Shown: positions 34,408 through 60,000 of the stretch, in pieces
Numbering within the stretch: the first letter of the stretch is position 1
Layout: each line of letters opens with the position of its first letter
Program-made: the position numbers and the translations under genes
Notes under the pieces: generated by a model
Told to the model about the DNA's origin: nothing
The model's database searches: none
Seen by the model: the letters and a program-made list of their open reading frames with translations, nothing else
Assembly (NCBI RefSeq): GCF_037042905.1
Contig: NC_087250.1
Span: 6,016,001 to 6,076,000, forward strand
Source of the DNA: Lytechinus pictus
Taxonomy: Eukaryota
Direction of reading: 5' to 3'
DNA: 60,000 bases

Positions 34408-34471
34408 CATAGAGCTATTAACCATAAACCTATAGCTCTAAGAAAAACCATAGAGCTATAATATCTCCATG
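34408..34471. mobile_element. 64-bp P-element-like micro-insertion (also 37390-37453, 40375-40438, 43330-43393)
   Basis: catagagcta...ctccatg flanked by atctaac and atcttac. Unit 1 has an empty site with a single atctaac at 32143-32149. Confidence 0.85.
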
Positions 34472-34832
34472 ATCTTACTAAACAACTGATGCGAAGAACG
34501 AGCTGAAAATTTTAATTTTCCGACTAGAAAAATTGATGTTCTATGTGGAGGCTTACTTAATTTGTAACCATGAAGACAATAGCTATCTGATCAAATGATT
34601 GAACTGAAGCGTGAAATTATTATTTTTTTTATTTTACGACCTGACAAGTAGATATTCTGAGCACTTTTGACAGAATTGATACCCAATTTACAACTTGCCA
34701 ATATGGGGACTAATACGGGCACTTAATCAGTGTTTTCTTTTTCAGCAAATAGCTGTGACTAAAAACTATTAAACGTCTAATCATTCTTCCGAGCGTTTCT
34801 ACGTCAATACAAACTAAATAGATAGCGCTTAA

Positions 34833-35423
34833 AGGGGAATGAAACCTTTGGAATAAGTAGACTTGTGTCGAAACAGAAAAATCAAAGAAACAGATCAACG
34901 AAGGTTTGAGAAAAATTGGACAAACAATGAGAAAGTTATGAGCATTTGAATATTGTAATCACTATTGCTATGGAGATCCTCCTATCGGCAACGCGACAAG
35001 GATGTGTGATGTCACATGTTACCAACTTTCCCTTTGAATGACTATATAGATTACCCCCAAAATGTCTCTTTTTGCTTTTTCTTATGGTGGTACAAACTCT
35101 TTATCCATGATGTATTCTTTAAAAAATCTCTATCACATGCCTTCCTACAGAAAGAACACATGATCTAGTACTGATAGATGTGATAAAAGAGGCAATTTAA
35201 ATGAAATATATACTAAAGTAATGGGGAGAGTTGTTCACAAGTGACATCACACATCTTTGTCGCATTGCCAATGTGAGGATCTCCATAGCATTAGTGATCG
35301 CAATATTCAAATGCTCATAACCTTCTCATTATTTGTCCGATTTTTCTAAAACTTTCGTTAATCTGTTTGCTTGATTTTTCTGTTTTCACACAAGCTATTT
35401 TGTTCCAAAGGTTTTATTCTCCT
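34833..35423. mobile_element. Kolobok-like palindromic MITE (also 37816-38405, 40800-41389, 43756-44346)
   Basis: Reads ttaa|aggggaatgaaacctttggaa ... ttccaaaggttttattctcct|ttta. Unit 1 has an empty single ttaa at 32497-32500. Confidence 0.92.
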
Positions 35424-38400
35424 TTTAGCTCTTCGTGAAACGGATTCAAGACGATTTTCTTTTCGCAGGAAAGGTATGATTGTCTTGTTACTGGTTTCTT
35501 AAGAAACTGGCCAAACATCCGTTTTGCTAAACCTTGATTTAGATTGGCCACTGGGCCATGTTACCATAATTATTTCTTTAATGGGAAAGTTGTCTTAATC
35601 GTAAAATTTTGATTATGAAAAAGGCTTAAGATCTATGAACCAATATTTGTAGGATCAACTGAAAATAAATTAATCAGAAACAGTCGAAAATAAACCCTAG
35701 GGCTTACTTAATGCCCCGATTACACCAATAAAACAGACGCGACACATAAGAAAGCTCTTGCGATATGTTTATGACATACTTTGGTCAATTTGAGGGTCCG
35801 CCAATAGTGTGACTACAGCAAAAATCAATAAATCAAAGTATGAAGTTTATCGCTTATCTTGAAAGTCTGAGAGTCGAACGCGTTGATAAGAAATTCGATA
35901 GACAAATACTTATGTCGAAAATAACCGTCCAAAGTCAGTTCTTAACTGTTAAGAACATGATCTTGCCGACAAACTTTACGTATAGGCCTATTGTGTTATC
36001 TTTATTGCCTTCATTTCCGACTTACCATAGCTAATCACATGTTGTGCTTCTCATTCACATACTGTACATGTAGGCCTATTTGGTAAAAAAGACACTATAA
36101 TTATACCTGAACCATCAAGTATAGGTCAACGCCTGAACAAATATAATTTACAGCGATATCGCACAACATAACTCCCCTTAGGTTACCCGAAATCGTAACT
36201 CTCAGGACATGTCTTTACTAAAATGATAGAAAGAGAAAAAATTGTACTAAAATAAAGAAGAAAAAAAGGCACGTCAATTCCTACAGCAGAGTCTCGAGAA
36301 CACCTGTAATCTTATTGCACTTTGTAATCTTACATGTAGATGTTTTTTTTATGTAAAATTACAGAAAATGGGTATTCCGTTTATGTTTTTTGTATTAAAC
36401 TGTTTTCGCCCCTCTTTTTTTAAATTTTAGAAAATTGTATCAACAAACTTATTGTTAAAACAATTTACAGAATGATTTGGTTATTTCTTTCTGTAAAATC
36501 TGTTGTTGTTTTTGTAAAATCTTCTGTTCTTTCTAACAGTTTATGAATTCGCTGCCCTCGATGTCGAAGACAAAAATATTGATGAAGTATTTTCATTTTA
36601 AGCCGAAACCACCCCTCATTTAAGGCAAACTTCGACGAAACAGACCTCCACTAACACTTTTTCTTTCTCAGGACAGCGTTTCATCAACATTTTTGTCTGA
36701 CAAGTAGTCCGATCTGACAACACTCCTTGATTGTGATTGGCCGAGATACATTGTTACTATGGTAAATGTCGGATGAAATGAGACTTCTTGTACAAATCGT
36801 CCGACAAGCATGACAATTAAGTCCTTCCCTGAGATGCTTCCCTCGAATGAGAGGGCAGGGGGGGGGGGAAGAAAATAATGTGGGGCCGGGGCAAAATGAG
36901 ATAAATCCTGAATGCCGTTTTTCCCCTTCATTAACAAAATAATATTGGGGGCAATGGTTACAAGAACGGGGGCCGGGATGCCCTTGCCCCTATACCCCTG
37001 TGCCACAACTAATCGAGTCGTTGGCTTAAAATAGAGAAATAAACCCTCTCCGGTCTATACGGATAATAATATGAGGTCTGTAGCTTGGAGCTGCATGCAG
37101 TGGATTCAATACACTGATCTGAAAAGGTATAGTTTGTAGTGACTCATGAAGAAGAGAAGATTCTGAGCGCGAGCTGAAAATTTTAAAATATACTGATTTA
37201 AAAAGTGACCTGTTAACAAGGTTAATGACGGTTTCCAGTGACTCATGAAAATTATGTACGTGTCACCAATCATAATAATGCGGGTGCGAAAAAGTTTTTA
37301 AAAGTTCAAAAATTTTGATTTTTCGACTTGTAGACTTGAAATATCTGGCAACTTTAACCATGTACAAAATAGTAAAATAGGTATCTAACCATAGAGCTAT
37401 TAACCATAAACCTATAGCTCTTAGAAAAACCATAGAGCTATAATAGCTCCATGATCTTACTAAACAACTGATGCGAAGAACGAGCTGAAAATTTTAATTT
37501 TCCGACTAGAAAAGTTTATGTTCTATGTGGAGGCTTACTTAATTTGTAACCATGACGACAATAGCTATCTGATCAAACGATTGAACTGAAGCGTGAAATT
37601 ATTATTATTTTTTTTTTTACGACCTGACAAGTAGATATTCTGAGCACTTTTGACAAGATTGATACCCAATTTACAACTTGCCAATATGGGGACTAATACG
37701 GGCACTTAATCAGTGTTTTCTTTTTCAGCAAATAGCTGTGACTAAAAACTATTAAACGTCTAATCATTCTTCCGAGCGTTTCTACGTCAATACAAACTAA
37801 ATAGATAGCGCTTAAAGGGGAATGAAACCTTTGGAATAAGTAGACTTGTGTCGAAACATAAAAATCAAAGAAACAGATCAACGAAAGTTTGAGAAAAATT
37901 GGACAAACAATGAGAAAGTTATGAGCATTTGAATATTGTAATCACTATTGCTATGGAGATCCTCCTATCGGCAATGCGACAAGGATGTGTGATGTCACAT
38001 GTGACCAACTTTCCCTTTGAATGACTATAGATTACTTCCAAAATGTCTCTTTTTGCTTTTTCTTATGGTGGTACAAACTCTTTATCCATGATGTATTCTT
38101 TAAAAAATCTCTATCACATGCCCTCCTAAAGAAAGAACACATGATCTAGTACTGATAGATGTGATAAAAGAGGCAATTTTAAATAAAATATATACTAAAG
38201 TAATGGGGAGAGTTGTTCACAAGTGACATCACACATCTTTGTCGCATTGCCAATGTGAGGATCTCCATAGCATTAGTGATCGCAATATTCAAATGCTCAT
38301 AACCTTCTCATTATTTGTCCGATTTTTCTAAAACTTTCGTTAATCTGTTTCCTTGATTTTTCTGTTTTCACACAAGCTATTTTGTTCCAAAGGTTTTATT

Positions 38401-41400
38401 CTCCTTTTAGCTCTTCGTGAAACGGATTCAAGACGATTTTCTTTTCGCGGGAAAGGTATGATTGTCTTGTCACTGGTTTCTAAAGAAACTGGCCAAACAT
38501 CCGTTTTGCTAAACCTTGATTTAGATTGGCCACTGGGCCATGTTACCATAATTATTTTTTTAAAGGGAAAGTTGTCTTAATCGTAAAATTTTGATTATGA
38601 AAAAGGCTTAAGATCTATAAACCAATATTTGTAGGATCAACTGAAAATAAATTAATCAGAAACAGTCGAAAATAAACCCTTGGGCTTACTTAATGCCCCG
38701 ATTACACCAATAAAACAGACGCGACACATAAGAAAGCTCTTGCGATATGTTTATGACATACTTTGGTCAATTTGAGGGACCGCCAATAGTGTGACTACAG
38801 CAAAAATCAATAAATCAAAGTATGAAGTTTATCGCTTATCTTGAAAGTCTGAGAGTCGAACGCGTTGATAAGAAATTCGATAGACAAATACTTATGTCGA
38901 AAATAACCGTCCAAAGTCAGTTCTTAACTGTTAAGAACATGATCTTGCCGACAAACTTTACGTATAGGCCTATTGTGTTATCTTCATTGCCTTCATTGCC
39001 GACTTACCATAGCTAATCACATGTTGTGCTTCTCATTCACACACTGTACATGTAGGCCCATTTGGTAAATCAGACCCTATAATTATACCTGAACCATCAA
39101 GTACAGGTCAACGCCTGAACTAATATAATTTACAGCGATATCGCACAACATAACTCCCCTTAGGTTACCCGAAATCGTAACTCTCAGGACATGTCTTTAC
39201 TAAAATGATAGAAAGAGAAAAAAATTGTACTAAAATAAAGAAGAAAAAAAGGCACGTCAATTCCTACAGCAGAGTCTCGAGAACACCTGTAATCTTATTG
39301 CACTTTGTAATCTTACATGTAGATGTTTTTTTTTATGTAAAATTACAGAAAATCGGTATTCCGTTTATGTTTATTGTATTAAACTGTTTTCGCCCCTCTT
39401 TTTTTAAATTTTAGAAAATTGTATCAACAAACTTATTGTTAAAACAATTTACAGAATGATTTGGTTATTTCTTTCTGTAAAATCTGTTGTTGTTTTTGTA
39501 AAATCTTCTGTTCTTTCTAACAGTTTATGAATTCGCTGCCCTCGATGTCGAAGACAAAAATATTGATGAAGTATTTTCATTTTAAGCCGAAACCACCCCT
39601 CATTTAAGGCAAACTTCGACGAAACAGACCTCCACTAACACTTTTTCTTTCTCAGGGCAGCGTTTCATCAACATTTTTGTCTGACAAGTAGTCCGATCTG
39701 ACAACACTCCTTGATTGTGATTGGCCGAGATACATTGTTACTATGGTAAATGTCGGATGAAATGAGACTTCTTGTACAAATCGTCCGACAAGCATGACAA
39801 TTAAGTCCTTCCCTGAGATGCTTCCCTCGAATGAGAGGGCAGGGGGGGGGGAAAGAAAATAATGTGGGGCCGGGGCAAAATGAGATAAATCCTGAATGCC
39901 GTTTTCCCCTTCATTAACAAAATAATATTGGGGGCAATGGTTACAAGAACGGGGGCCGGGATGCCCTTGCCCCTATACCCCTGTGCCACAACTAATCGAG
40001 TCGTTGGCTTAAAATAGAGAAATAAACCCTCTCCGGTCTATACGGATAATAATATGAGGTCTGTAGCTTGGAGCTGCATGCAGTGGATTCCATACACTGA
40101 TCTGAAAAGGTATAGTTTGTAGTGACTCATGAAGAAGAGAAGATTCTGAGCGCGAGCTGAAAATTTTAAAATATACTGATTTAAAAAGTGACCTGTTAAC
40201 AAGGTTAATGACGGTTTCCAGTGACTCATGAAAATTATGTACGTGTCACCAATCATAATAATGCGGGCGCGAAAAAAGTTTTTTAAAAGTTCAAAAATTT
40301 TGATTTTTCGACTTGTAGACTGGAAATATCTGGCAACTTTAACCATGTACAAAATAGTAAAATAGGTATCTAACCATAGAGCTATTAACCATAAACCTAT
40401 AGCTCTTAGAAAAACCATAGAGCTATAATAGCTCCATGATCTTACTAAACAACTGATGCGAAGAACGAGCTGAAAATTTTAATTTTCCGACTAGAAAAGT
40501 TTATGTTCTATGTGGAGGCTTACTTAATTTGTAACCATGAAGACAATAGCTATCTGATCAAACGATTGAACTGAAGCGTGAAATTATTATTATTTTTTTT
40601 TAAAGACCTGACAAGTAGATATTCTGAGCACTTTTGACAAGATTGATACCCAATTTACAACTTGCCAATATGGGGACTAATACGGGCACTTAATCAGTGT
40701 TTTCTTTTTCAGCAAATAGCTGTGACTAAAAACTATTAAACGTCTAATCATTCTTCCGAGCGTTTCTACGTCAATACAAACTAAATAGATAGCGCTTAAA
40801 GGGGAATGAAACCTTTGGAATAAGTAGACTTGTGTCGAAACATAAAAATCAAAGAAACAGATCAACGAAAGTTTGAGAAAAATTGGACAAACAATGAGAA
40901 AGTTATGAGCATTTGAATATTGTAATCACTATTGCTATGGAGATCCTCCTATCGGCAATGCGACAAGGATGTGTGATGTCACATGTGACCAACTTTCCCT
41001 TTGAATGACTATAGATTACTTCCAAAATGTCTCTTTTTGCTTTTTCTTATGGTGGTACAAACTCTTTATCCATGATGTATTCTTTAAAAAATCTCTATCA
41101 CATGCCCTCCTAAAGAAAGAACACATGATCTAGTACTGATAGATGTGATAAAAGAGGCAATTTTAAATAAAATATATACTAAAGTAATGGGGAGAGTTGT
41201 TCACAAGTGACATCACACATCTTTGTCGCATTGCCAATGTGAGGATCTCCATAGCATTAGTGATCGCAATATTCAAATGCTCATAACCTTCTCATTATTT
41301 GTCCGATTTTTCTAAAACTTTCGTTAATCTGTTTCCTTGATTTTTTTGTTTTCACACAAGCTATTTTGTTCCAAAGGTTTTATTCTCCTTTTAGCTCTTC

Positions 41401-44400
41401 GTGAAACGGATTCAAGACGATTTTCTTTTCGCGGGAAAGGTATGATTGTCTTGTCACTGGTTTCTAAAGAAACTGGCCAAACATCCGTTTTGCTAAACCT
41501 TGATTTAGATTGGCCACTGGGCCATGTTACCATAATTATTTCTTTGATGGGAAAGTTGTCTTAATCGTAAAATTTTGATTATGAAAAAGGCTTAAGATCT
41601 ATAAACCAATATTTGTAGGATCAACTGAAAATAAATTAATCAGAAACAGTCGAAAATAAACCCTTGGGCTTACTTAATGCCCCAGTTACACCAATAAAAC
41701 AGACGCGACACATAAGAAAGCTCTTGCGATATGTTTATGACATACTTTGGTCAATTTGAGGGTCCGCCAATAGTGTGACTACAGCAAAATACAATAAATC
41801 AAAGTAGGAAGTTTATCGCTTATCTTGAAAGTCTGAGAGTCGAACGCGTTGATAAGAAATTCGATAGACAAATACTTATGTCGAAAATAACCGTCCAAAG
41901 TCAGTTCTTAACTGTTAAGAACATGATCTTGCCGACAAACTTTACGTATAGGCCTATTGTGTTATCTTCATTGCCTTCATTGCCGACTTACCATAGCTCA
42001 TCACATGTTGTGCTTCTCATTCACACACTGTACATGTAGGCCCATTTGGTAAAAAGACCCTATAATTATACCTGAACCATTAAGTATAGGTCAACGCCTG
42101 AACTAATATAATTTACAGCGATATCGCACAACATATCTCCCCTTAGGTTACCCGAAATCGTAACTCTCAGGACATGTCTTTACTAAAATGATAGAAAGAG
42201 AAAAAATTGTACTAAAATAAAGAAGAAAAAAGGCACGTCAATTCCTACAGCAGAGTCTCGAGAACACCTGTAATCTTATTGCACTTTTTAATCTTACATG
42301 TAGATGTTTTTTATGTAAAATTACAGAAAATCGGTATTCCGTGTATGTTTATTGTAATACAACTGTTTTCGCCCCTTTTTTAAAATTTTAGAAAATTGTA
42401 TACAAAACTTTATTGTTATAACAATTTACAGAATGATTTGGTTATTTCTTTCTGTAAAATCTTCTGTTCTTTTTAATAGTTTATGAATTCGCTGCCCTCG
42501 ATGTCGAAGACAAAAATATTGATGAAGTATTTTCATTTTAAGCCTAAACCACCCCTCATTTAAGGCAAACTTCGACGAAACAGACCTCCACTAACACTTT
42601 TTCTTTCTCAGGGCAGCGTTTCATCAACATTTTTGTCTGACAAGTAGTCCGATCTGACAACAATCCTTGATTGTGATTGGCCGAGATACATTGTTACTAT
42701 GGTTACTGTCGGATGAAATGAGACTTCTTGTACAAATCGTCCGACAAGCATGACATTTATATCCTTCCCTGAGATGCTTCCCTCGAATGAGAGGGCAGGG
42801 GGGGGGGGGAGAAAATAATGTGGGGCCGGGGCAAAATGAGATAAATCCTCAATGCCGTTTGTCCCCTTCATTAACAAAATAATATTGGGGGCAATGGTTA
42901 CAAGAACGGGGGCCGGGATGCCCTTGCCCCTATACCCCTGTGCCACAACTAATCGAGTCGTTGGCTTAAAATAGAGAAATAAACCCTCTCCGGTCTATAC
43001 GGATAATAATATGAGGTCTGTAGCTTGGAGCTGCATGCAGTGGATTCAATACACTGATCTGAAAAGGTATAGTTTGTAGTGACTCATGAAGAAGAGAAGA
43101 TTCTGAGCGCGAGCTGAAAATTTTAAAATATACTGATTTAAAAAGTGACCTGTTAACAAGGTTAATGACGGTTTCCAGTGACTCATGAAAATTATGTACG
43201 TGTCACCAATCATAATAATGCGGGCGCGAAAAAGTTTTTAAAAGTTCAAAAATTTTGATTTTTCGACTTGTAAACTGGAAATATATGGCAATTTTAACCA
43301 TGTACAAAATAGTAAAATAGGTATCTAACCATAGAGCTATTAACCATAAACCTATAGCTCTAAGAAAAACCATAGAGCTATAATATCTCCATGATCTTAC
43401 TAAACAACTGATGCGAAGAACGAGCTGAAAATTTTAATTTTCCGACTAGAAAAATTGATGTTCTATGTGGAGGCTTACTTAATGTGTAACCATGAAGACA
43501 ATAGCTATCTGATCAAACGATTGAACTGAAGCGTGAAATTATTATTTTTTTTTATTTTACGACCTGACAAGTAGATATTCTGAGCACTTTTGACAGAATT
43601 GATACCCAATTTACAACTTGCCAATATGGGGACTAATACGGGCACTTAATCAGTGTTTTCTTTTTCAGCAAATAGCTGTGACTAAAAACTATTAAACGTC
43701 TAATCATTCTTCCGAGCGTTTCTACGTCAATACAAACTAAATAGATAGCGCTTAAAGGAATGTGAAACCTTTGGAATAAGTAGACTTGTGTCGAAACATA
43801 AAAATCAAAGAAACAGATCAACGAAGGTTTGAGAAAAATTGGACAAACAATGAGAAAGTTATGAGCATTTGAATATTGTAATCACTATTGCTATGGAGAT
43901 CCTCCTATCGGCAACGCGACAAGGATGTGTGATGTCACATGTTACCAACTTTCCCTTTGAATGACTATATAGATTACCCCCAAAATGTCTCTTTTTGCTT
44001 TTTCTTATGGTGGTACAAACTCTTTATCCATGATGTATTCTTTAAAAAATCTCTATCACATGCCCTCCTACAGAAAGAACACATGATCTAGTACTGATAG
44101 ATGTGATAAAAGAGGCAATTTAAATGAAATATATACTAAAGTAATGGGGAGAGTTGTTCACAAGTGACATCACACATCTTTGTCGCATTGCCAATATGAG
44201 GATCTCCATAGCATTAGTGATCGCAATATTCAAATGCTCATAACCTTCTCATTATTTGTCCGATTTTTCTAAAACTTTCGTTGATCTGTTTCTTTGATTT
44301 TTCTGTTTTCACACAAGCTATTTTGTTCCAAAGGTTTTATTCTCCTTTTAGCTCTTCGTGAAACGGATTCAAGACGATTTTCTTTTCGCGGGAAAGGTAT

Positions 44401-45406
44401 GATTGTCTTGTTACTGGTTTCTTAAGAAACTGGCCAAACATCCGTTTTGCTAAACCTTGATTTAGATTGGCCACTGGGCCATGTTACCATAATTATTTCT
44501 TTGATGGGAAAGTTGTCTTAATCGTAAAATTTTGATTATGAAAAAGGCTTAAGATCTATAAACCAATATTTGTAGGATCAACTGAAAATAAATTAATCAG
44601 AAACAGTCGAAAATAAACCCTTGGGCTTACTTAATGCCCCAGTTACACCAATAAAACAGACGCGACACATAAGAAAGCTCTTGCGATATGTTTATGATAT
44701 ACTTTGGTCAATTTGAGGGTCCGCCAATAGTGTGACTACAGCAAAAATCAATAAATCAAAGTATGAAGTTTATCGCTTATCTTGAAAGTCTGAGAGTCGA
44801 ACGCGTTGATAAGAAATTCGATAAACAAATACTTATGTCGAAAATAACCGTCCAAAGTCAGTTCTTAACTGTTAAGAACATGATCTTGCCGACAAACTTT
44901 ACGTATAGGTCTATTGTGTTATCTTCATTGCCGACTTACCATAGCTCATCACATGTTGTGCTTCTCATTCACATACATGTAGGTCTATTTGGTAAAAAAG
45001 ACCCTATAATTATACCTGAACCATGAGGTATAGGTCAATGCCTGAACTGATATAATTTACAGCGATATCGCACAACATAACTCCCCTTAGGTTACTCGAA
45101 ATCGTAACTCTCAGGATATGTCTTTACTAAAATGAAAGAAAATTTGTACTAAAAAAGGAGAAAAGGGCACGTCAATTCCTACAGCAGAGTCTAGAGAACA
45201 ACTGTAATCTTACTGCACTTTGTAATCTTACATGTAGATCTTTTTTATGTAAAATTACAGAAAATCGGTATTCCGTGAATGTTTATTGTAAAACAACCGT
45301 TTTCGCCCTTTTGTAAAATGGTAGAAAATTGTATAAAACTTTATTGTTTTAACAATTTACAGAATGATTTGGTAATTTCTTTCTGTAAAATCTGGTTTTT
45401 TTTTTT

Positions 45407-45634
45407 CAATTCTTCTTTAGTAAAATCTTCTGTTCTCTCTAACAGTGTGCGAAATCACTGCCCTCGATGTCGAAGACAGAAATATTGATTAAGCATTTTC
45501 ATTTTAAGCCGAAACTACCCCAATTCTTCTGTAGTAAAATCTTCTGTTCTTTCTAACAGTGTGCGAAATCACTGCCCTCGATGTCGAAGACAGAGATATT
45601 GATACAGTATTTTCATTTTAAGCCGAAACCACCC
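45407..45634. repeat. 114-bp direct tandem duplication specific to unit 5
   Basis: caattcttct...aagccgaaac(t/c)accc starts at 45407 and again at 45521. Confidence 0.9.
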
Positions 45635-45707
45635 CTCATTTAAGGAAAACTTCGACGAAACAGACCTCCACTGACACATGTTTTCCTGTTGGACGCGCAT
45701 TCATAGT

Positions 45708-45887
45708 GTGTGTGTGTGTATTTGAGTTTTGTCAGACGTGTATCAATCAGATATGATTATTTACGTCTGGGACCGACCTTTAACGTCGCCATCCGAAAGA
45801 CGTGACCAGGGCTCGAACCTCGAACCTCTGCATCAATGTGTAACTTCCCCACAGCTTGGATTACAGGCGCACGCCACAACGCCCAGT
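45708..45887 (-). mobile_element. SINE with 7SL-like 5' head, tRNA-type B box, Deu/Nin-like core and (CA)n tail
   Basis: The - strand reads ACTGGGCGTTGTGGCGTGCGCCTGTAATCCAAGCT...GGTTCGAGCCC...GTCTTTCGGATGGCGACGTTAAAGGTCGGTCCC...(CA)n. TSD ttcatagt at 45700-45707 and 45887-45894. Confidence 0.8.
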
Positions 45888-48037
45888 TCATAGTACAATA
45901 TCTAGCGAGTGGCCTTAAGGGGGCGTTTCATCAACATTTTTGTCTGACAAGTAGTCCGATCTGACAACACTCCTTGGTTGTGATTGGCTGAGAACATTGT
46001 TACTATGGTAACTGTCGGAGGAAATGAGACTTGTGGGATACATCGTCCGACCAGTCCTTTCATGAGATGCTTCCCTAGGATGAGGGGGCGGGGGTGGGGC
46101 AAACAAATAATGTTGGGCCCGGGCAAAATGAGATTAATCCTCTCCGTATTTTTCTTCATTAACAAAATAATATGGTTAATATAGTATGGGGCAAAGGTTG
46201 AAACAGTCAATGGGGGTCGGGATGCCCTTGCCTCGATACCCCCTGTGCCACCGCTGATCGAGTCGTTGGCTTGAAATACAGTTAAAAAACCCGCTCCGGC
46301 CGTCACGGATATCCCATACCCAGTTGCCAGTAAAAAACAAAACAATAACAAATAATATGAGGTCCGTAGCGAGGGGATGCAGTGGATTCAAATTTGAAAT
46401 TCAGTGACGAGTAGTACCCCGCCCCCTCCCCTCATCCGTGAAGAATATCGGACTAAATTTCTCCTAATGTGCTTACAAACGTAACATTATTATTATGATT
46501 ATGAGTCATTGGTCCCCAGAAAGTAATTTGATGAAAATGACACAATGTAAGAAGTAGTATTAAACATGGTATGCGATGGAAAATGATCAACGAACTAGAA
46601 ATAATAGGAAATATGATCGCACGTGATCACCTGAAATTGAGATAGACCAACATTTTCCTGAATCATCGAGTTTTTTTTTAAACCCAGTTCTTAAGCAATT
46701 CAACGGAGCTAAAATAATTAATTAACAAGGAGATATTTTTTTCTGTCAAAAATATGTAAAAATGATCCAGCCAGTATCATAGGCGTTTGTTTCTTTGCGT
46801 TCAAAGCAAACTAAAGATATATGATAAGTTTTTAGGTTAATCATTTTGTTTACATAGAATTATGGATCTAAAGTTCACTAATCACTAATCATAAACAGTA
46901 ATGATAACTATCACATGACTTAGAACGCGCCTCGTTTTGTAGTGTCCCCGATTGTACCCGTGAAAGTAGGCCTATACGTTTTAGTGTGGTAAAAAGGAAC
47001 AACAGATTCAAGAAATTCATTCTGATCAACCTCAACAACCTGTGTCTTTGGGAACGGTGCAATGAACTAAAATACTTCTGCTCCGAAACTAACTTTTTTG
47101 AAGTTTTCGTTAGACCTACGGATGTCTGACTGTGTTGTAGAGTATGAGGCAAAGTCGATTCGATGCGTGATACCATACTAATTCCGGTAGGCCTATAACT
47201 CAGCAGAATCAAGGTATTCAGAGTGCAGTATTATTGCAAGGTGATCATCAAGCAGCTGAAACTCCTGAAAGTCCGTTAAAGCAAGGATAAAATATCAATC
47301 AACCCGCCGCTGATGGAAACACATTTCGACTACCAAGAAATTTTTTTGAAGTTCAAATTAGACCTTACTTCGACTAGTATGATTTGAAGAACTGTTAGAA
47401 AATTTATCCTTAAAATAAAAGAAGTTCCTGGAGCAGAGTCTCGAGAACACCTGTAATCTTACCAGATTGCGTAATCTTACAGGAAATTAGTATTTGGTGT
47501 ATGGAATCTTCAAAATTTCCTTAAATAAAACACACTTTTCCCCTTTTCAAACAGACTTGTTCTGTTAAATTGCAGAAAAAATCCTGTATTCTAAATTAAC
47601 AGAATGATTTTGTTATTGCTTTCTGTAAAACCAGAGTTTTTTAACAGTGTAGGTGAAGTCTCATGAGTGGTCCCATACGACGTTTTTTGTATACAGGTGT
47701 GGATCTACCGAATCACGGAATCAAGTTAAGAGGTGATCTCCAAGCAGTTGGCAGTCTACAACACATTTTAAGCGTAGAACCATTATTCAATAGAAACACA
47801 TTTCTGCAATCAAAATAACTTATTTTCGGTTTACAGTAGACCCACGGTCGTCGGGCTCTGTTAGATTACTAGCTGGAGTCTGATGCATGCTGTCATTCAT
47901 TGGCCTGTATTAATCAACAAAATCATGACCTTGTAATGCATTTTATTGAGGTGATCAACAAGCAATTGTAACTTGATGCCAGGCAATTGGGCTGTGTTCA
48001 AGAGCGCATGATGAAATATAGTGAGTGACGTCATGCA

Positions 48038-51000
48038 ATGGCCAGTATGGATCGTCAAAATCAAGACCTTCAGAGAGCACTGTCGCGAGATGATCTTCCG
48101 GCGGTCATAGGCCTATTACAACAAGGTACTGACGTTAACCAACCAGATCAAAATGGAAATACTCCATTACACATGGCCGCACAACGTGGCAAGAAAGATA
48201 TCATGGAGTTTCTCATTAAACATGGTGGTGATGTAGAGAAAGAGAATGAAAATGGACAGACACCCTTACATCTTGTCACATCGCATGGAAACCTTGAAGC
48301 AATGAAAGTAATACTCAGCCACGGTGGAAATGTGTACAAAGAGGACAACATAGGCAACAGTGCATTACTCATCGGCGTAAAGAATGATCACAAGGATGTA
48401 GTGCGATACTTCCTCAGTCAAGGCACCAGTGTGAATAAGGTCAATAGTAAAGGATGGACACCCTTGTACATCGCTGCCGGTCGGGGCAAGATTGACATGT
48501 TGAAATACTTGATCAGTAAAGGAGCCGATGTACATTGTACACATGAAAACAATTTGTTGCCATTGGCAAACGCTTCATCAATTGGTCATGTAGAGGTAGT
48601 GAAGTATCTTCTAAGTCAAGGAGCTGAGGTGAATAAGGGAGATAATATTGGCTCGACTCCTTTACGCGTTGCTGCTCAAGAAGGTCATCTGGATACATGT
48701 GAATATCTGATCAGTCAAGGAGCTGAGGTGAATAAAGGGAGGAATGATGGTGGGACTGCATTACACAGTGCTGCTCAGAAAGGTCACCTCGATGTAACCA
48801 GATATCTGATCAATCAAGGAGCCGAGGTAAATAGGGTTGATGATGATGGTTACAGTGCATTGCGTGGTTCTGCTATAAATGGCCATATTGAGGTTACCAA
48901 ATATCTGATTAGTCAAGGAGCTGAGGGGAATAAGGGAGATAATATTGGCTCGACTCCTTTACGCGTTGCTGCTCAAGAAGGTCATCTGGATACATGTGAA
49001 TATCTGATCAGTCATGGAGCTGAGGTGGATAAAGGGAGGAATGATGGTGGGACTGCATTACACAGTGCTGCTCAGAGGGGTCATCTTAATATCACCAGAT
49101 ATCTGATCAGTAAAGGAGCTGAGGTGAATAGGGTAGATGATAACGGTTACAGTGCTTTGCGTGAATCTGCTTTCAGCGGTCATACAGAGGTCATCAAATA
49201 TCTCATTAGTCAAGGAGCTGAGGTGAATAAGGGAGATAATGAGGGCTGGACTTCATTACATCTTGCTGCTCAAGAAGGTCATCTGGATACATGTGAATAT
49301 CTGATCAGTCATGGAGCTGAGGTGGATAAAGGGAGGAATGATGGTGGGACTGCATTACACAATGCTGCTCAGAATGGTCACCTTGATATAACTAGATATC
49401 TGATCAATCAAGGAGCCGAGGTGAATAGGGTAGATGATGACGGTTACAGTGCTTTGCGTGAATCTGCTTTCAGCGGTCATACAGAGGTCATCAAATATCT
49501 CATTAGTCAAGGAGCTGAGGTGAATAAGGGAGATAATATTGGCTCGACTCCTTTACGCGTTGCTGCTCAAGAAGGTCATCTGGATACATGTGAATATCTG
49601 ATCAGTCATGGAGCTGAGGTGGATAAAGGGAGGAATGATGGTGGGACTGCATTACACAGTGCTGCTCAGAGGGGTCATCTTAATATCACCAGATATCTGA
49701 TCAGTAAAGGAGCTGAGGTGAATAGGGTAACTGATAACGGTTACAGTGCTTTGCGTGAATCTGCTTTCAGTGGTCATACAGAGGTCATCAAATATCTCAT
49801 TAGTCAAGGAGCTGAGGTGAATAAGGGAGATAATGAGGGCTGGACTTCATTACATCTTGCTGCTCAAGAAGGTCATCTGGATACATGTAGATGTCTGGTC
49901 GGTCATGGAGCTGAGGTGGATAAAGGGAGGAATGATGGTGGGACTGCATTACACAGTGCTGCTCAGAGGGGTCATCTTAATATCACCAGATATCTGATCA
50001 GTAAAGGAGCTGAGGTGAATAGGGTTGATGATGATGGTTACAGTCCATTGCGTGGTTCTGCTATAAATGGCCATATTGAGGTTACCAAATATCTGATTAG
50101 TCAAGGAGCTGAGGTGAATAAGGGAGATAATATTGGCTCGACTCCTTTACGCGTTGCTGCTCAAGAAGGTCATCTGGATACATGTAGATGTCTGGTCGGT
50201 CATGGAGCTGAGGTGGATAAAGGAAAGAATGGTGGTTGGACTGCATTACACAGTGCTGCTCAGAGTGGTCATCTTAATATCACCAGATATCTGATCAGTA
50301 AAGGAGCTGAGGTGAATAGGGTAGATGATAACGGTTACAGTGCTTTGCGTGAATCTGCTTTCAGCGGTCATACAGAGGTCATCAAATATCTCATTAGTCA
50401 AGGAGCTGAGGTGAATAAGGGAGATAATGAGGGCTGGACTTCATTACATCTTGCTGCTCAAGAAGGTCATCTGGATACATGTGAATATCTGATCAGTCAT
50501 GGAGCTGAGGTGGATAAAGGGAGGAATGATGGTGGGACTGCATTACACAATGCTGCTCAGAATGGTCACCTTGATATAACTAGATATCTGATCAATCAAG
50601 GAGCCGAGGTGAATAGGGTTGATGATGATGGTTACAGTCCATTTTGTGGTTCTGCTATAAATGGCCATATTGAGGTTACCAAATATCTGATTAGTCAAGG
50701 AGCTGAGGTGAATAAGGGAGATAATATTGGCTCGACTCCTTTACGCGTTGCTGCTCAAGAAGGTCATCTGGATACATGTGAATATCTGATCAGTCATGGA
50801 GCTGAGGTGGATAAAGGGAGGAATGATGGTGGGACTGCATTACACAGTGCTGCTCAGAGGGGTCATCTTAATATCACCAGATATCTGATCAGTAAAGGAG
50901 CTGAGGTGAATAGGGTAGATGATAACGGTTACAGTGCTTTGCGTGAATCTGCTTTCAGCGGTCATACAGAGGTCATCAAATATCTCATTAGTCAAGGAGC

Positions 51001-53083
51001 TGAGGTGAATAAGGGAGATAATGAGGGCTGGACTTCATTACATCTTGCTGCTCAAGAAGGTCATCTGGATACATGTGAATATCTGATCAGTCATGGAGCT
51101 GAGGTGGATAAAGGGAGGAATGATGGTGGGACTGCATTACACAATGCTGCTCAGAATGGTCACCTTGATATAACTAGATATCTGATCAATCAAGGAGCCG
51201 AGGTGAATAGGGTAGATGATGACGGTTACAGTGCTTTGCGTGAATCTGCTTTCAGCGGTCATACAGAGGTCATCAAATATCTCATTAGTCAAGGAGCTGA
51301 GGTGAATAAGGGAGATAATATTGGCTCGACTCCTTTACGCGTTGCTGCTCAAGAAGGTCATCTGGATACATGTGAATATCTGATCAGTCATGGAGCTGAG
51401 GTGGATAAAGGGAGGAATGATGGTGGGACTGCATTACACAGTGCTGCTCAGAGGGGTCATCTTAATATCACCAGATATCTGATCAGTAAAGGAGCTGAGG
51501 TGAATAGGGTAACTGATAACGGTTACAGTGCTTTGCGTGAATCTGCTTTCAGTGGTCATACAGAGGTCATCAAATATCTCATTAGTCAAGGAGCTGAGGT
51601 GAATAAGGGAGATAATGAGGGCTGGACTTCATTACATCTTGCTGCTCAAGAAGGTCATCTGGATACATGTAGATGTCTGGTCGGTCATGGAGCTGAGGTG
51701 GATAAAGGGAGGAATGATGGTGGGACTGCATTACACAGTGCTGCTCAGAGGGGTCATCTTAATATCACCAGATATCTGATCAGTAAAGGAGCTGAGGTGA
51801 ATAGGGTTGATGATGATGGTTACAGTCCATTGCGTGGTTCTGCTATAAATGGCCATATTGAGGTTACCAAATATCTGATTAGTCAAGGAGCTGAGGTGAA
51901 TAAGGGAGATAATATTGGCTCGACTCCTTTACGCGTTGCTGCTCAAGAAGGTCATCTGGATACATGTGAATATCTGATCAGTCATGGAGCTGAGGTGGAT
52001 AAAGGGAGGAATGATGGTGGGACTGCATTACACAGTGCTGCTCAGAGGGGTCATCTTAATATCACCAGATATCTGATCAGTAAAGGAGCTGAGGTGAATA
52101 GGGTAGATGATAACGGTTACAGTGCTTTGCGTGAATCTGCTTTCAGCGGTCATACAGAGGTCATCAAATATCTCATTAGTCAAGGAGCTGAGGTGAATAA
52201 GGGAGATAATGAGGGCTGGACTTCATTACATCTTGCTGCTCAAGAAGGTCATCTGGATACATGTGAATATCTGATCAGTCATGGAGCTGAGGTGGATAAA
52301 GGGAGGAATGATGGTTGGACTGCATTACACAGTGCTGCTAAGAAAGGTCACCTCGGTGTCACCAAATATCTGATTAGTGAAGGATCTGAGGTCAATAAGG
52401 GAAATAATATTGGCTCGACTCCTTTACACGTTGCTGCTCAAGAAGGTTATCTTGATACATGTGAATATCTAGTCAGCCAAGGAGCAGAGGTTGAAAAGGT
52501 AGATGGAGATGGTTGGACACTCTGTGGTGCTGCTCGAAACGGTCACCAATTTATCACTAAATATTTGATCGAACAAGGTGCTAAGGTGAATGATAGATAT
52601 AGCAATGGTCGAACTGCGTTACATATTGCTGCTCAGAATGACCATCTTGAAGTCACCAAATGTCTCATAAGGCATGAGACAGATGTTAATACGACCGATA
52701 TTCAGGGATGGACCCCCTTACATGTTGCTGCTGAAGGCGGCCATTTTGATATATGCAAGTATCTAATCGGTCAAGGAGCTGAGGTTAATTATGCTGATAA
52801 CAAGGGCTGCACAACTTTACACTTTGCTGTTGAAAGTGGCAATCTCGATATCACTAAGCATTTGCTTCGTCAAGGAGCTAAGATTAACAAAGAAAATTAC
52901 CAGGGTGATACACCATTACATATTGCCGTTAAGCAAGGTTTCATCGAGCTTGTTCAAGTTCTACTTTTAGGAGGAGCATATTGTTTTTCTGATGACAAGG
53001 ACGACCAGACAGCATTACATCAAACGTTGACTCTTGGGTTCAAAGATATCACCGATCTACTCATTGCTGATTGGAATTCAAAG
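48038..53083 (+). CDS. Ankyrin-repeat/ZU5/UPA-like protein, first coding exon (~50 ankyrin repeats, 1682 codons)
   Basis: 5-kb ORF of 33-aa GxTxLHxAAxxGHLxxxxYLISxGAEVN repeats. Donor AAG|gtatta at 53084, phase 0. Confidence 0.95.
48610..52400 (+). repeat. Coding tandem array: 297-nt (3-ankyrin) unit, ~12.7 copies
   Basis: Near-identical nucleotide triads. The unique variant gtaactgataac recurs at 49727 and 51509 (offset 1782 = 6x297). Confidence 0.97.
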
Positions 53084-53573
53084 GTATTAATATTATCGTT
53101 ATTACCATCATCATCATTTATAATATAATTATTATTTTCCAGTAGTTGCAGAGTAGTAATATAGTAGCGTTCAATATTCAATTCAACTCTAGTTGACAAC
53201 AAAGACTACACAGGCTACAGAATAGTATAACGAATACAATAATAATGAAAGAGAAAAATAAGATACAATAATGAATTATTTGAATTATGGGAATGTGTTT
53301 GAACGCAATAGAAATCTTTAAGGCTTGTCGAGTAAACTGTTTTCGAGGAAATATAAAGTAAATTACATTACAATGTAGAATATATTTTTGAAATTATATT
53401 CCTATTCATATTGATACAATGTAATACTTGTGTATGGCATATCAACAGAAAAGAAAAAAAAAACGTCTAATTTTATCTATGGTCTTGGGTAGGATTACAC
53501 GTACTAAGATAATTCGGTCATTTTGGCTCACGTGTCAATTGATAAAATGCGTTCCATATTTCAATCCATTCAG

Positions 53574-53756
53574 AACAATCTACCGGTTCTCCACATTGCT
53601 GTCCTCCGCGGTGATGCGTCCCTGGTAGAGAAATTAATCTCTTACGGGTGTGATATTAACACTCAATCAATTTATGGTCAGACGTGTCTACATAAAGCCA
53701 TTAAGTTATGCTACATGACTGAGAGGACTGTGAAGGAAACTGAAATTTTGCAAAAG
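53574..53756 (+). CDS. Exon: ankyrin repeats (NNLPVLHIAV...GQTCLHKAI...ILQK)
   Basis: Acceptor ttcag|, donor AAG|gtgaca. 183 nt, phase 0/0, ankyrin motifs. Confidence 0.88.
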
Positions 53757-53821
53757 GTGACATGGGCATGCATGTAGATGTACATGTAGAAATAGAGTTT
53801 ACAAGAGTTCGACCAAAAAAG

Positions 53822-54560
53822 TGGTGGGGGTGTGCCGCGGGCGAGACAAAAAACGGGGGCCTTGGAGCGGGCTTATTGTAAAAAGGAGGGTCCTCGGAAC
53901 GGGCTTCGGAACTACAAATGTTTGTGAAAAACGGGGGTCCTTGGAACGGGTCGCCTGCGTGCGAGTGCGTATGCATCCCTATGGAACGTGCATGCAGCTG
54001 GGCTGCGGCAAGACTGTCGGACGCGCTAGCGCAGAGGTGATGGTTAGACAGCGAGCTGTGGCCGCTTTTCACCAAAATTGCGACCGGAACGGCGTAACAG
54101 AAAATATGCGAAGCCCTGGAGCGTATTTTTTTTTCTTTTTTCTCGAGAAGAAGAAAATGCTATGCTTTGGAGCGGCTTTTTTTGTTCTTTTTCTCAATAA
54201 GACAAAAACGCTATGCCTCGGAACGGAAATTTGAGTGTAAAAATGGGGGTCCCCTCCGCGGCACATACCCTCTATTTAGATTTAGATTTTTAGATTTATT
54301 GATTTATTTCATTTCTTTTCTTTCCATTTTTCACATACAAGTCAAAAATACATAAATACAAACACATAAATACAATTACAAAAATGAACAAAAGTAACGA
54401 CCTTACATTTGCAAAGATTGGGTAATTATACGAACAAAATACGATACTTATATCCTCATTTTATAAAACTTAACATTCTTAAAAGCATGAGTATTCGTGT
54501 GTATGTTAAAAAAGAAAGGGGTGAAATGAATGCATTATATACTGAGTGCCCCCCCCCCCG
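53822..54560. mobile_element. Intronic MITE remnant whose right end appears interrupted by a ~255-bp insertion
   Basis: gggtgtgccgcgg (53828) is inverted relative to ccgcggcacataccc (54256-54270). A putative terminus tgcattatatactgagtgccccccccccg resumes at ~54531. Confidence 0.55.
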
Positions 54561-56905: not shown

Positions 56906-57350
56906 GTTCACGTCAACCTAGCTGTAACACACCCTTTCACTTTAATATTATTAATGTATTCACCAATGAATTCCCTATTGTACCACTACACAGTGGGTTG
57001 AAATCAACGTAAGAGAAGCATATGCATACCTCAACAAAAGTTTAAAACAAAATATGATATTTTGGGGGATATCTAATCAACATTATGACAGTATTTTAAC
57101 ATTTCCTTACATACTATTGGAAATTATTCTTAACAATTTCATGGTTCAAGATGGACTAATTACATTATGCGCTTTGTTGACGTAGCAATTAATGCTAAAT
57201 AAAGCTGGACATATTTTCCAAGGTCACTTGCAAATCTCTAAATCAAGACCTGAGGAAGAAAGTTCACACTAACAACCTTTGGAATTTGACTTAGTTTGAA
57301 CGCAGCCCAGACAAGAAATTGAGTTTCATGTTTTTTTTTTTCTGTTACAG

Positions 57351-57508
57351 ATATCCAATGAATACTACTATGGTGCATTACCTCCTGAGAAGGGACTTGT
57401 GTTCTATCTTCTTGATAGTGGAGCCAGATTAGATATAAAGGACGATGCAGGCAATCTACCAATCGACTATGCTAAGGATCATGTGATCAATCAGATGATC
57501 TTGTTAAG
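57351..57508 (+). CDS. Exon: last ankyrin-like repeat (ISNEYY...LVFYLLDSGARLDIKDDAGNLPIDYA...)
   Basis: Polypyrimidine tract plus ttacag| acceptor, donor AG|gttgta. Phase 0/2, open frame. Confidence 0.85.
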
Positions 57509-57891
57509 GTTGTATTCTTTGATAGACACTACCTTGTTTTTATTCTATTAAACTGCAAGCTAAATGTTTTAATATAATTTATGAGATGTATTATGAAGGT
57601 CAATGAACATGTATTTTATGCTTTCTATTTATTTAATTTTTTTTTCTGAAAACATTAATACGCACTTCCATCAGCTTCCAAAATTCCAGCACTTCTATTT
57701 TGACATTTAAACCTCTATATACATAAGTTAAACAAATCCCAGCAAATTGTAGGTGTTCTTCTCAGAAATTGACGCATTATCATTTTAGAGAATTGGAAAT
57801 TGCATAATTTAATGAAATGCATGAACCTATTGAAATAGATGAAGTTAGTTAGATATTAAAGTATGCATGAATGTTGTCTATCTTATTTCAG

Positions 57892-58094: not shown

Positions 58095-58332
58095 GTAAGT
58101 AAAAGTGTTTGATACCAGTTACAAATCTGAGCACGAAAGGGAAAATGTAATGTTCATTATAAAACACTTGTAACTAAAATTGGTCAAACAATTCGTAATG
58201 ATAATTGAGGATTCTGTAATTTACCGTATTTCGTAGGGATAATTAGTTTTTTACGTAAATTTATATTACACTTTAACATCTATTTTGATATTGTATTGCT
58301 GTTTTACTATCTTAAAAAAAAATTAACAACAG

Positions 58333-58665
58333 ATGCACCACCAAGCACTAGTAATCTTTCCATAGGAGCCAAGACAACTAACAACCAAGAAGTTGACTTA
58401 GGAGACCATGACGTGTCAATCTTAATTCCTCCTGGCGCTGTTCTCCATGATGACAAGGGAGAGATCACCCTTACATTCTTACGGGAGCTACCCGGTATCG
58501 ACCTCCACGAAGATGAATCGGTGGCTTGTTACGGGATCAGATGTGATCCTCCAAACACGATGTTCGTCAAATCTGTTAAGATCAGGATACCACACTCTTC
58601 AGTGGTCATCAATCCAGATCAAGTGAAGCCAGACATCGTTTCTCGTGTATGGGACTCGGTCAAGG
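58333..58665 (+). CDS. Exon: ZU5 domain (VSILIPPGAV...IRCDPPNTMFVKSVKIRIPHS)
   Basis: ZU5-type motifs IPPGA and F.K.V.I.IPH. Acceptor acag|, donor G|gtaagt, phase 1/1. Confidence 0.88.
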
Positions 58666-58745
58666 GTAAGTTATTCTAGTTTGATTATATATATTCCATG
58701 CAAAATGTCAGCATATTGAACATTATTTGTCTCAATCAAGCTTGG

Positions 58746-58926: not shown

Positions 58927-59174
58927 ACTTACCAGTAACTTTGCGAAAAAGAACATCCAACTCATCGGACGAGCCACCATACTGCAAAGTCTACAAGAGA
59001 CACCTTGAGCTGTACGTTTCCCACTGTGCTGATTGGTGGGTACTTATTCCACTAGAACAACAGGTGATCCGACAGAAACTTCTATGCACTCCATACATCC
59101 AAGAGAGCATAAAGAGAGGACAAGATGTTGACATTCATCTTCATGTTCATGCCAACCTACCAGGGATGGAAGAG
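58927..59174 (+). CDS. Exon: end of ZU5 and start of UPA-like region (...LELYVSHCADWWVLIP...NLPGMEE)
   Basis: atccag| acceptor, GAG|gtaagg donor. Phase 1/0. Confidence 0.85.
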
Positions 59175-59951
59175 GTAAGGAACATCAGTTGCATAGGAGA
59201 GATGGTTTTGAAGTGTATTGTCGGTGTGTGTGAGGGTGAATGGGCATTTACAAGTAAGGATGATGGTGTGCGAGTGTGTGAAAGATGTGTGTGTTTATGT
59301 AAGTGTGGCAGAAGGAATAATGGTCCTCGGATGAAATAAGTTTGCCCTCGGATTTCGAAAACAAAAATCTGTGCTTTATTTCTCGACTTTTCGAGATCGA
59401 GGAACAACACTTATCAGAAATAAACCAGTGGTTGTGTTCGAGTGTTTGCTCCTGTATCGCCAACTCATGGTGATAGGCTAAGTAAGACATATCATATTTC
59501 TCACAATTTTCATTAACTGGTCCCATGTAATGTTATTTCCAATTGCAATTAGCAAGTTCTGGAGATATAGGAATGTGTAGTCCCACTCCCTATTTTGTCC
59601 AAAATGCCATTATATTTTTAGTCTTCTTCTAAATATGAGACAAATTTCCTCTTTGTGTCAAATTATTAATTTTTTTTCAAGGAAATCAGAAAATGACGTG
59701 GAACATGGAATGGTGAAATGATTATGCAATTTCCTAGACCAACGGCGTATATAGAAGATTGACAACAGTTCAGATTGTTTATCAGAGGCCGGCATTATAT
59801 TTAAGTGTATTGTGTAACTTTACTGGCCAATCACTTATTGTCTTCTTAATATCCCAATTTCTTATATCAAATGGTATTTTGAGTCCGATGTCTCTAGACT
59901 TACCGCATAATACACAAGTATTCAGTGAGTCTACAACTCTTTATTTCACAG

Positions 59952-60000
59952 GAGATTCAAAGACAGGAGGAAAAGAGGTTGTACAGGAAAGCTCATCCTT
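59952..60000 (+). CDS. Next exon, truncated by window end (EIQRQEEKRLYRKAHP)
   Basis: tttcacag| acceptor, phase 0, open to window end. Confidence 0.75.

Follow-up and report, generated by a model that had tools for sequence, protein, structure and literature searches.

We analyzed a 60,000-nucleotide stretch of the genome of the sea urchin Lytechinus pictus (assembly GCF_037042905.1, contig NC_087250.1, positions 6,016,001 to 6,076,000 of the forward strand; C6:6016001-6076000 of the 812-Mb assembly, hereafter the window), which carries a gene whose giant first exon encodes ankyrin repeats from one end to the other. An open reading frame (ORF) of 1,696 amino acids (aa) occupies positions 48038-53128 of the plus strand, with its ATG at 48038 lying three codons past an in-frame stop, and its product, ankyrin along its entire length, scored 1265 bits against the Pfam family Ank_2 and 1181 bits against Ank. 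A repeat hidden Markov model built from the gene's own rows recognized 50 ankyrin domains in this ORF. The first exon ends directly after codon 1,682, at a GT donor at 53084 that was read directly in the sequence. Our main subject is the central part of this exon, where a homogenised array of 99-nt repeats lies between two diverged caps (Table 1).

A homogenised array made of cassettes and exact blocks

A preliminary description of the locus had noted 38 near-identical ankyrin repeats arranged in A-B-C triads. This was confirmed when the exon was read in a 33-codon register starting at 48038: strict A-B-C order holds in 38 repeats (48632-52393), and a 39th repeat at 52394 is A-like and more diverged than the other 38. 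Tandem Repeats Finder likewise reported a period of 297 for positions 48614-52397 (12.7 copies, 89% matches, score 6105), together with a second period of 99 (39.2 copies, 68% matches). Within 48632-52492, the in-register DNA identity was 65.7% at a lag of one repeat, 89.1% at a lag of three, 93.3% at lags of both six and twelve, and 95.9% at a lag of eighteen. An internal identity of at least 85% over at least 100 aa was hence found at the triad period (89-96% at the DNA level) but not between neighbouring repeats (66%). All the sequence variants quoted in the preliminary description were present (NIGSTPLRV/NEGWTSLHL, SAAQK/SAAQR/NAAQN/SAAQS/SAAKK, DDD/DDN/TDN and ESAFS/GSAIN), and the observation of the array is real and far beyond chance. 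The label 'single-exon' was appropriate for the array, which is contained within one exon, but not for the gene, which has at least 15 coding segments. The YLISxGAEV scaffold, which had been considered largely fixed, proved to be less so, with RCLVGH in its place in 3 of the 13 A repeats and YLINQ in 4 of the 13 B repeats.

The longest in-register exact self-match of the gene is formed by the two copies of a 1258-bp block, as a result of which triads 2-5 are the same as triads 8-11; triads 6-7, by contrast, differ from triads 12-13, with mismatches from position 50186 on. The array grew stepwise, by 3, then 6, then 18 repeats.

The repeats do not show site-by-site hypervariability; in each class they form a mosaic of 5-6 discrete cassettes. 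There are 5 unique sequences among the 13 A repeats, 5 among the 13 B repeats and 6 among the 12 C repeats, the differences between copies come as linked blocks, and most copies are without a private mutation. In the A repeats, IGSTPLRV or EGWTSLHL is joined to either EYLISH or RCLVGH, and all four combinations were found; the same was true for the four pairings of b1/b2 with c1/c2, also after collapsing the 18-repeat duplicate. Because all four combinations of such blocks occur (the four-gamete argument), cassettes have been exchanged between repeats by intragenic recombination, which supports what had been proposed from the sequence at the outset.

Many of the differences had also been described as amino-acid-changing, but the main types of the B and C classes differ more at synonymous sites. 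Nei-Gojobori counts of the proportions of non-synonymous (pN) and synonymous (pS) differences gave pN 0.089 and pS 0.097 for A1 versus A2, pN 0.078 and pS 0.178 for b1 versus b2, and pN 0.103 and pS 0.415 for c1 (ESAFS) versus c2 (GSAIN), so that pN/pS between the main types lay at approximately 0.25-0.9, with synonymous differences exceeding amino-acid changes for B and C. For the minor young variants, the sum was 17 non-synonymous versus 2 synonymous changes, which was not significant (p=0.16), and nine of these young changes fall into two tight patches, RCLVGH (five) and KNGGW (four), each of which may represent one event. The RCLVGH patch, located at 49889-49903, 50186-50200 and 51671-51685, replaces EYLIS with RCLVG through five clustered, strand-biased changes, four A-to-G and one G-to-A, all of them non-synonymous. 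Ectopic conversion was considered as its source and rejected: with up to 2 mismatches allowed, the 33-nt patch occurs only three times in the 812-Mb assembly, each time in this gene, which means that no paralog in this assembly was its source.

The relative ages of these elements emerged from a comparison with the nearest paralog (locus L011), which is located 84 kb downstream and has a frame of 1,853 aa. Both caps are colinear, one-to-one, with this paralog: the N-terminal cap shares 84-94% DNA identity with paralog repeats 1-5 and at most 66% with any repeat of its own gene, and the C-terminal cap shares 86-93% with paralog repeats 49-53. The synonymous divergence (dS) was 0.209 for the N-terminal cap, with a ratio of non-synonymous to synonymous divergence (dN/dS) of 0.40, and 0.238 for the C-terminal cap, with a dN/dS of 0.27 (last 176 codons, reaching slightly upstream of 52493; 374 codons in total for both caps). 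Given these dN/dS values of 0.27-0.40, the comparison indicates that the caps are under purifying selection. Within the window gene, the central repeats share 95-100% identity, against 85-94% with the paralog, whose own centre is built of C-A-B-B units followed by looser repeats. The c2 type found its best match in paralog repeat 6 and the c1 type in paralog repeat 10, and since each best matches a different paralog repeat, c1 and c2 predate the gene split; the A1/A2 difference (pS ~0.10) is younger than the split. ESAFS and GSAIN are thus old, co-amplified repeat types and not new diversity, each having its own best counterpart in the paralog. Ordered by pS or dS, the c1/c2 difference (0.415) comes first, followed by the caps (0.21-0.24), b1/b2 (0.178), A1/A2 (0.097) and finally the duplicated blocks (0). 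Old repeat types present in a new copy number, with conserved edges, fit the classic picture expected for unequal crossing-over. Between the two paralogs, at locus L012 5568-8003 (G000:C6:6139568-6142003), lie open frames of 586 and 225 aa that, judged by eye, look like the reverse-transcriptase region of a retrotransposon.

The gene, its relatives and its surroundings

Beyond the first exon, tblastn with the relatives P0002 and P0004 placed 14 colinear segments of the gene up to window coordinate ~74,909, that is, 14.9 kb past the end of the window. The second exon is bordered by an AG acceptor at 53572-53573 and a GT donor at 53757, and exons 1 and 2 are both in phase 0. Past the window end (loci L009/L010), a Pfam Death match (6.2e-6) is followed by a second ZU5 (6e-12), and a terminal Death-like segment matched Pfam Death at 1.3e-3 with 19.2 bits, under the cut-off of 22.6. 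The predicted domain order of the gene is therefore ankyrin repeats (ANK, ~51), ZU5, UPA-like, Death, ZU5 and Death-like. The name 'UPA-like' derives only from the position of this exon behind ZU5, as the Pfam scan of the exon gave no match of its own; one ZU5 was detected between the ankyrin part and this exon, in a region whose introns are only partly modelled. The aligned downstream pieces contain no stops and the splice sites are GT-AG. Pfam scans of the exon-1 product and of 8 downstream segments matched neither NACHT nor NB-ARC, and neither is listed for P0002 or P0004. Because the N-terminus (MASMDRQNQDL...), read by eye, shows no obvious signal peptide, the predicted protein is probably cytosolic. 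An AlphaFold2 model of eight repeats (predicted local distance difference test 83.1, predicted template modelling score 0.81) placed helix 1 at repeat positions 10-17 and helix 2 at positions 20-28.

Table 1. Features of the ankyrin-repeat gene, in window coordinates.
Feature	Position	Strand	Remarks
First coding exon	48038..53083	+	5,046 nt, 1,682 codons, phase 0; ankyrin repeats throughout; Pfam Ank/Ank_2 E=0
N-terminal cap	48038..48631	+	six diverged ankyrin repeats
Homogenised array	48632..52492	+	39 repeats of 99 nt, 13 A-B-C triads
Exact block, copy 1	48928..50185	+	1,258 bp; repeated 1,782 bp (18 repeats) downstream with 0 mismatches
Exact block, copy 2	50710..51967	+	identical to 48928-50185; 419 aa
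C-terminal cap	52493..53083	+	diverged ankyrin repeats
Second coding exon	53574..53756	+	183 nt, phase 0; one more ankyrin repeat (Pfam Ank; tblastn with P0002/P0004)
Linker exon	57342..57512	+	55-63% identity to relatives P0004 and P0002 (tblastn)
First ZU5 exon region	58218..58667	+	Pfam ZU5 2.9e-9; tblastn; acceptor position approximate
UPA-like exon after ZU5	58929..59171	+	65% identical to P0002; most conserved piece of the family
Next exon-like match, start	59943..60000	+	tblastn; gene continues beyond the window

The UPA-like exon had 26 matches in its own genome at E < 1e-20, the window's own included, which are clustered on contigs C6, C8, C9 and C21, with a single match on C14. Array DNA was matched at at least ~18 loci with 66-83% identity (18 of 46 candidates scored). 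In the protein database, all 32 matches of the UPA-like exon were sea-urchin or unnamed proteins (61-71% identity); the named ones came from S. purpuratus, L. pictus and L. variegatus and are annotated as 'ankyrin-3-like', 'ZU5 domain-containing' or 'uncharacterized'. This search was word-based and may miss distant relatives. From these matches, the gene belongs to a large, tandem-clustered family whose named relatives are all from sea urchins. With the N-terminal 200 aa as the query, no close, long, annotated orthologue was found, the best match being P0076 at 52% identity.

Exact duplications are not limited to the window gene. Among 15 long ankyrin frames at 14 loci (400-2,520 aa, each one a single open frame), the window gene had the longest exact in-register self-match, and five other paralog frames had exact self-matches of 580, 535, 437, 388 and 312 bp at lags of 4 to 21 repeats; for the other nine, the values were 46-172 bp. 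Four of 18 family proteins from the database contained exact self-matches of 155, 77, 71 and 47 aa, with 3-22 aa in the other 14, and in all three canonical ankyrins that were compared the longest exact self-match was 8 aa. Block duplication is thus a habit of the family, of which the window gene is the most extreme case among the members examined, and its occurrence in other members argues against a one-off assembly error, without proving the exact copy number. The paralog at locus L018 (G000:C6:17934001-17944000, minus strand) has an open frame of 2,520 aa with 75 ankyrin repeats, which runs off the fetched stretch, and its exact self-match of 437 bp has a lag of 21 repeats.

The preliminary description had further proposed that variation is concentrated on the ligand-binding face of the solenoid, in the beta-turn and first helix. 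In an alignment with the designed ankyrin repeat protein (DARPin) 5lec, repeat positions 3, 5, 6, 8, 16 and 17 were those differing among the DARPin's internal repeats; we take these to be the randomised DARPin positions 2, 3, 5, 13, 14 and 33. These six face positions were fixed beforehand, and changes were counted on a minimum spanning tree with the Nei-Gojobori method, a crude way of counting whose assumptions are violated by recombination. In the window gene, the face positions accounted for 9 of the 34 variable class-position cells versus 6.2 expected (p=0.15), and positions 1-17, comprising the beta-turn and helix 1, for 20 of 34 (p=0.25), so that the proposed concentration was not significant here. 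For this gene, which provided only 14 edges, pN/pS was 0.79 at the face (15.3 non-synonymous, 5.7 synonymous) and 0.56 elsewhere. The 13 paralog arrays, with 396 edges, gave a pN/pS of 1.35 at the face (bootstrap over arrays 1.14-1.68), compared with 0.56 outside it. The face value was 1.19 when the local pS replaced the global pS used for 1.35, and 1.50 and 1.44 at tighter distance cut-offs, and taken singly, positions 4, 5, 6, 8, 13, 16 and 17 gave 1.09-1.90. The conserved caps exhibited no elevation (face pN 0.073 versus 0.069 elsewhere), which makes mutation bias alone an unlikely cause. These counts suggest that recently duplicated repeats are under diversifying or relaxed selection across the family.

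The surroundings of the gene are repetitive as well. Upstream, a tandem repeat with a unit of ~2.98 kb occupies window positions 32528-46400 in ~5 copies that are 89-100% identical, and it stops ~1.6 kb before the gene's ATG; each unit carries a minus-strand ORF of ~128 aa without a Pfam match (33689, 36668, 42608 and a diverged one at 45902). The surrounding region itself tends towards tandem duplication. On both sides of the exon, at 47300-47750 and 53796-54000, there are very high-copy dispersed repeats with many loose ends, which reached a summed contig depth of ~360,000-500,000 in the DNA runs and a read depth of 80-140 in both RNA runs, and which are probably transposable elements.

Weighing the explanations

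The explanation that we favour, with a probability of roughly 0.7, is that the locus holds a recently block-amplified, cassette-mosaic array in the giant first exon of a member of the sea-urchin ANK/ZU5/Death family. Three repeat types, A, B and C, all of them older than the gene split, were multiplied within this gene, first three and six repeats at a time and in the end eighteen, so recently that 1,258 bp remain identical. Judging by the pattern, in-frame unequal crossing-over, replication slippage or gene conversion between the 99-nt units could have brought this about, and the intron-free exon would permit exchange between these units. Array length would then probably be polymorphic in the population. 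We infer further that the solenoid serves as a binding platform, with a central part that turns over quickly in length and surface, and that binding is linked to death-fold signalling through the ZU5/UPA/Death part; from the architecture alone we hypothesize an immune role for this signalling. In this sense, the predicted protein is a reasonable candidate for a fast-changing binding protein.

Several findings weigh against this explanation. The mechanism of amplification is deduced from the pattern rather than observed. The second ZU5 (L009 8570-8911; window 68570-68911) reads VVVRTC where the relatives have VVLPHC, such that 'PH' is missing, and, compared with P0002 and P0004, 9 residues are absent from the last Death-like segment, which could point to early decay in the C-terminal half or simply to an exon border. 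In two RNA-seq runs, the depth was 0 in most bins of 47972-53795, with a maximum of 1.6 in one bin (raw runs carrying the same species label, approximately a quarter of each read, tissues and stages not stated). Short-read DNA contigs from other samples (X1 and X5) covered both caps with ~4-7% differences, yet they fragmented inside the array and no piece spanned it, and the exact copy number as well as the perfect 1,258-bp duplication could come partly from assembly or polishing. Joints in these contigs (e.g. 48645 to 49195) were considered as signs of polymorphism, but as they may be graph paths through repeats no conclusion was drawn from them.

Taken to its end, this last concern would mean that the homogeneity itself is an artefact, with a true array that is shorter or more varied and an 18-repeat duplication created by the assembler. 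The complete lack of differences over 1,258 bp, the scarcity of private mutations, the break-up of the short-read contigs and the absence from the assembly of an alternative haplotig, with nothing above 83% identity outside the window locus, are what such an error would leave behind; the two 18-repeat halves, however, are not simple copies of each other (triads 6-7 versus 12-13), the frame is open throughout, the window is without any N, and block duplications with other periods exist in five further paralog ORFs and in 4 of 18 relatives that stem from other data sets, which is why we regard this account as quite improbable. We give equally little credence to the idea that the gene is a recent duplicate without a function, with an array that grows neutrally and a frame that is open only for want of time for its copies to decay. 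An array of fresh, open-frame copies would indeed stay open by default, and the near-absence of RNA reads in the two runs and the degraded appearance of the second ZU5 and the last Death-like segment would agree with it, but the caps are not fresh copies and have a dN/dS of 0.27-0.40 over 374 codons, and the gene has intact splice sites and 14 colinear downstream segments that are stop-free in the aligned pieces.

The gene could also encode a diversifying innate-recognition receptor, in which positive selection on the concave face and repeat shuffling create allelic or even somatic repertoires, as in the fungal NOD-like receptors (NLRs). The recombinant cassettes and the signalling nature of the Death and ZU5 modules are compatible with this, as are the elevated face pN/pS across the 13 paralog arrays (1.35 versus 0.56) and its lack of elevation in the caps, and there are precedents in the invertebrate death-adaptor arrays proposed as sensors (available portions of PMC8195603) and in fungi (available portions of PMC4986451). 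In the window gene itself the signal is lacking: its face value of 0.79 is no different from the rest, the enrichments stay at p=0.15 and p=0.25, and the 17:2 ratio of young changes is not significant (p=0.16), with nine of them in two patches. Furthermore, the counting method is crude and its assumptions are broken by recombination, a nucleotide-binding domain was not found, and there were almost no reads in the two RNA runs. A receptor-diversification reading is thus possible, with support at the level of the family, but for the window gene we consider it unlikely. Slightly less probable still, in our estimation, is the broader proposal that the arrays of the family form a germline repeat-shuffling system, in which in-frame unequal recombination and diversifying selection on the concave face would produce individual-specific cytosolic binders wired to death-fold signalling. 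If true, this would be an animal system that parallels the fungal NLRs with highly conserved repeats and does so in the absence of any nucleotide-binding domain.

Comparison with known systems

The closest counterparts of the window gene are predicted sea-urchin ANK/ZU5/Death proteins (e.g. P0002, P0004, P0167 and P0175), which carry names such as 'ankyrin-3-like', 'ankyrin-1-like' or 'uncharacterized' and with which it shares the domain order, colinear exons and 38-77% identity, and some of which also hold exact multi-repeat duplications. It differs from these relatives in the extent of its exact duplication (1,258 bp or 419 aa, versus at most 580 bp in paralogs and at most 155 aa in the database relatives examined) and in its strict three-type triad order. 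The family is known from predicted proteins and is unstudied; in the published literature, we found no paper on a sea-urchin ANK/ZU5/Death family.

The canonical ankyrins (ANK1-3), UNC5 and PIDD1 have the ZU5/UPA/Death logic in common with the window gene, and in the ankyrins it likewise follows a solenoid, in the order ZU5, UPA-like segment and Death. The membrane-binding domain of canonical ankyrins consists of 24 repeats, whereas the window gene has ~51 that are encoded largely in one exon, a duplicated module and extra Death folds; its best matches among solved structures are nevertheless the repeats of ankyrin-1/2 (4rlv, 7tw3; E ~1e-114). The spectrin-binding supramodule of canonical ankyrins is a tandem ZU5-ZU5-UPA, to be set beside the one ZU5 detected ahead of the UPA-like exon in the partly modelled region of the window gene. 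In autoproteolytic ZU5 domains of the PIDD1/FIIND type, HFS or SFS forms the cleavage motif at the ZU5/UPA border. The window gene differs from these, as neither motif was found in the frames of its ZU5 exons, where the sequence reads IPHSSV. DARPins (5lec, 6mol) align with its repeats position by position, but the repeats of the window gene are natural, and from the face set only positions 6, 8, 16 and 17 vary, in addition to many non-face positions.

Among sea-urchin gene families, SpTransformer (Sp185/333) of the purple sea urchin resembles the window gene in being a clustered multigene family with mosaic repeats in a single exon and suspected local genomic instability, and differs from it in encoding unrelated small secreted proteins without an ankyrin or death fold and in having a demonstrated immune role, as far as the available portions of the respective papers describe it (PMC5491942, PMC9623053). 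In marine invertebrates, repeat arrays that expanded families join to death-like adaptors were put forward as sensors of invaders, which the available part of that work presents as a hypothesis (PMC8195603). A paper on domain shuffling in amphioxus mentions neither ankyrin nor ZU5 (PMC2575513), and a paper on apoptosis in lophotrochozoans, considered as a parallel, was set aside because it treats ankyrin-caspases, which are different from the sea-urchin family (PMC11463336).

The most instructive comparison is that with the fungal NLRs, such as those encoded by het-e/nwd of Podospora, for which the accessible sections of Dyrka et al. 2014 (PMC4986451) describe ankyrin, tetratricopeptide (TPR) and WD arrays with at least 85% internal identity, polymorphism in repeat number, positive selection on the concave face and reshuffling of repeats. 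According to the same sections, highly conserved internal repeats are present in 0.8% of metazoan ANK/TPR/WD proteins (PMC4986451), so that near-identical arrays within a gene are rare in animals, while in fungi they are the mark of self/non-self receptors whose diversity comes from repeat shuffling. As far as these sections allow the comparison, the window gene and the fungal NLRs are alike in their high repeat identity, in the evidence for reshuffling and in the connection to a cell-death signalling part, and also in having variable sites on the concave face of the solenoid, for which the enrichment in the window gene is at p=0.15. The two differ in that the window gene is an animal gene in which no NACHT or NB-ARC was found, and in that its identity lies between triads and not between neighbouring repeats. 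Because no nucleotide-binding domain was found, the window gene seems to resemble the fungal NLRs in its evolutionary mechanics without being a member of them. Should the receptor reading be true, the family would represent a new class of variable intracellular sensors in an animal known for its very large innate-immune gene families; should it not, the locus would be a clean example of solenoid growth by block duplication within a single exon, and a reminder to validate arrays of this kind with long reads. If the family does behave like the fungal NLRs, the length and order of its arrays would be simple population markers.

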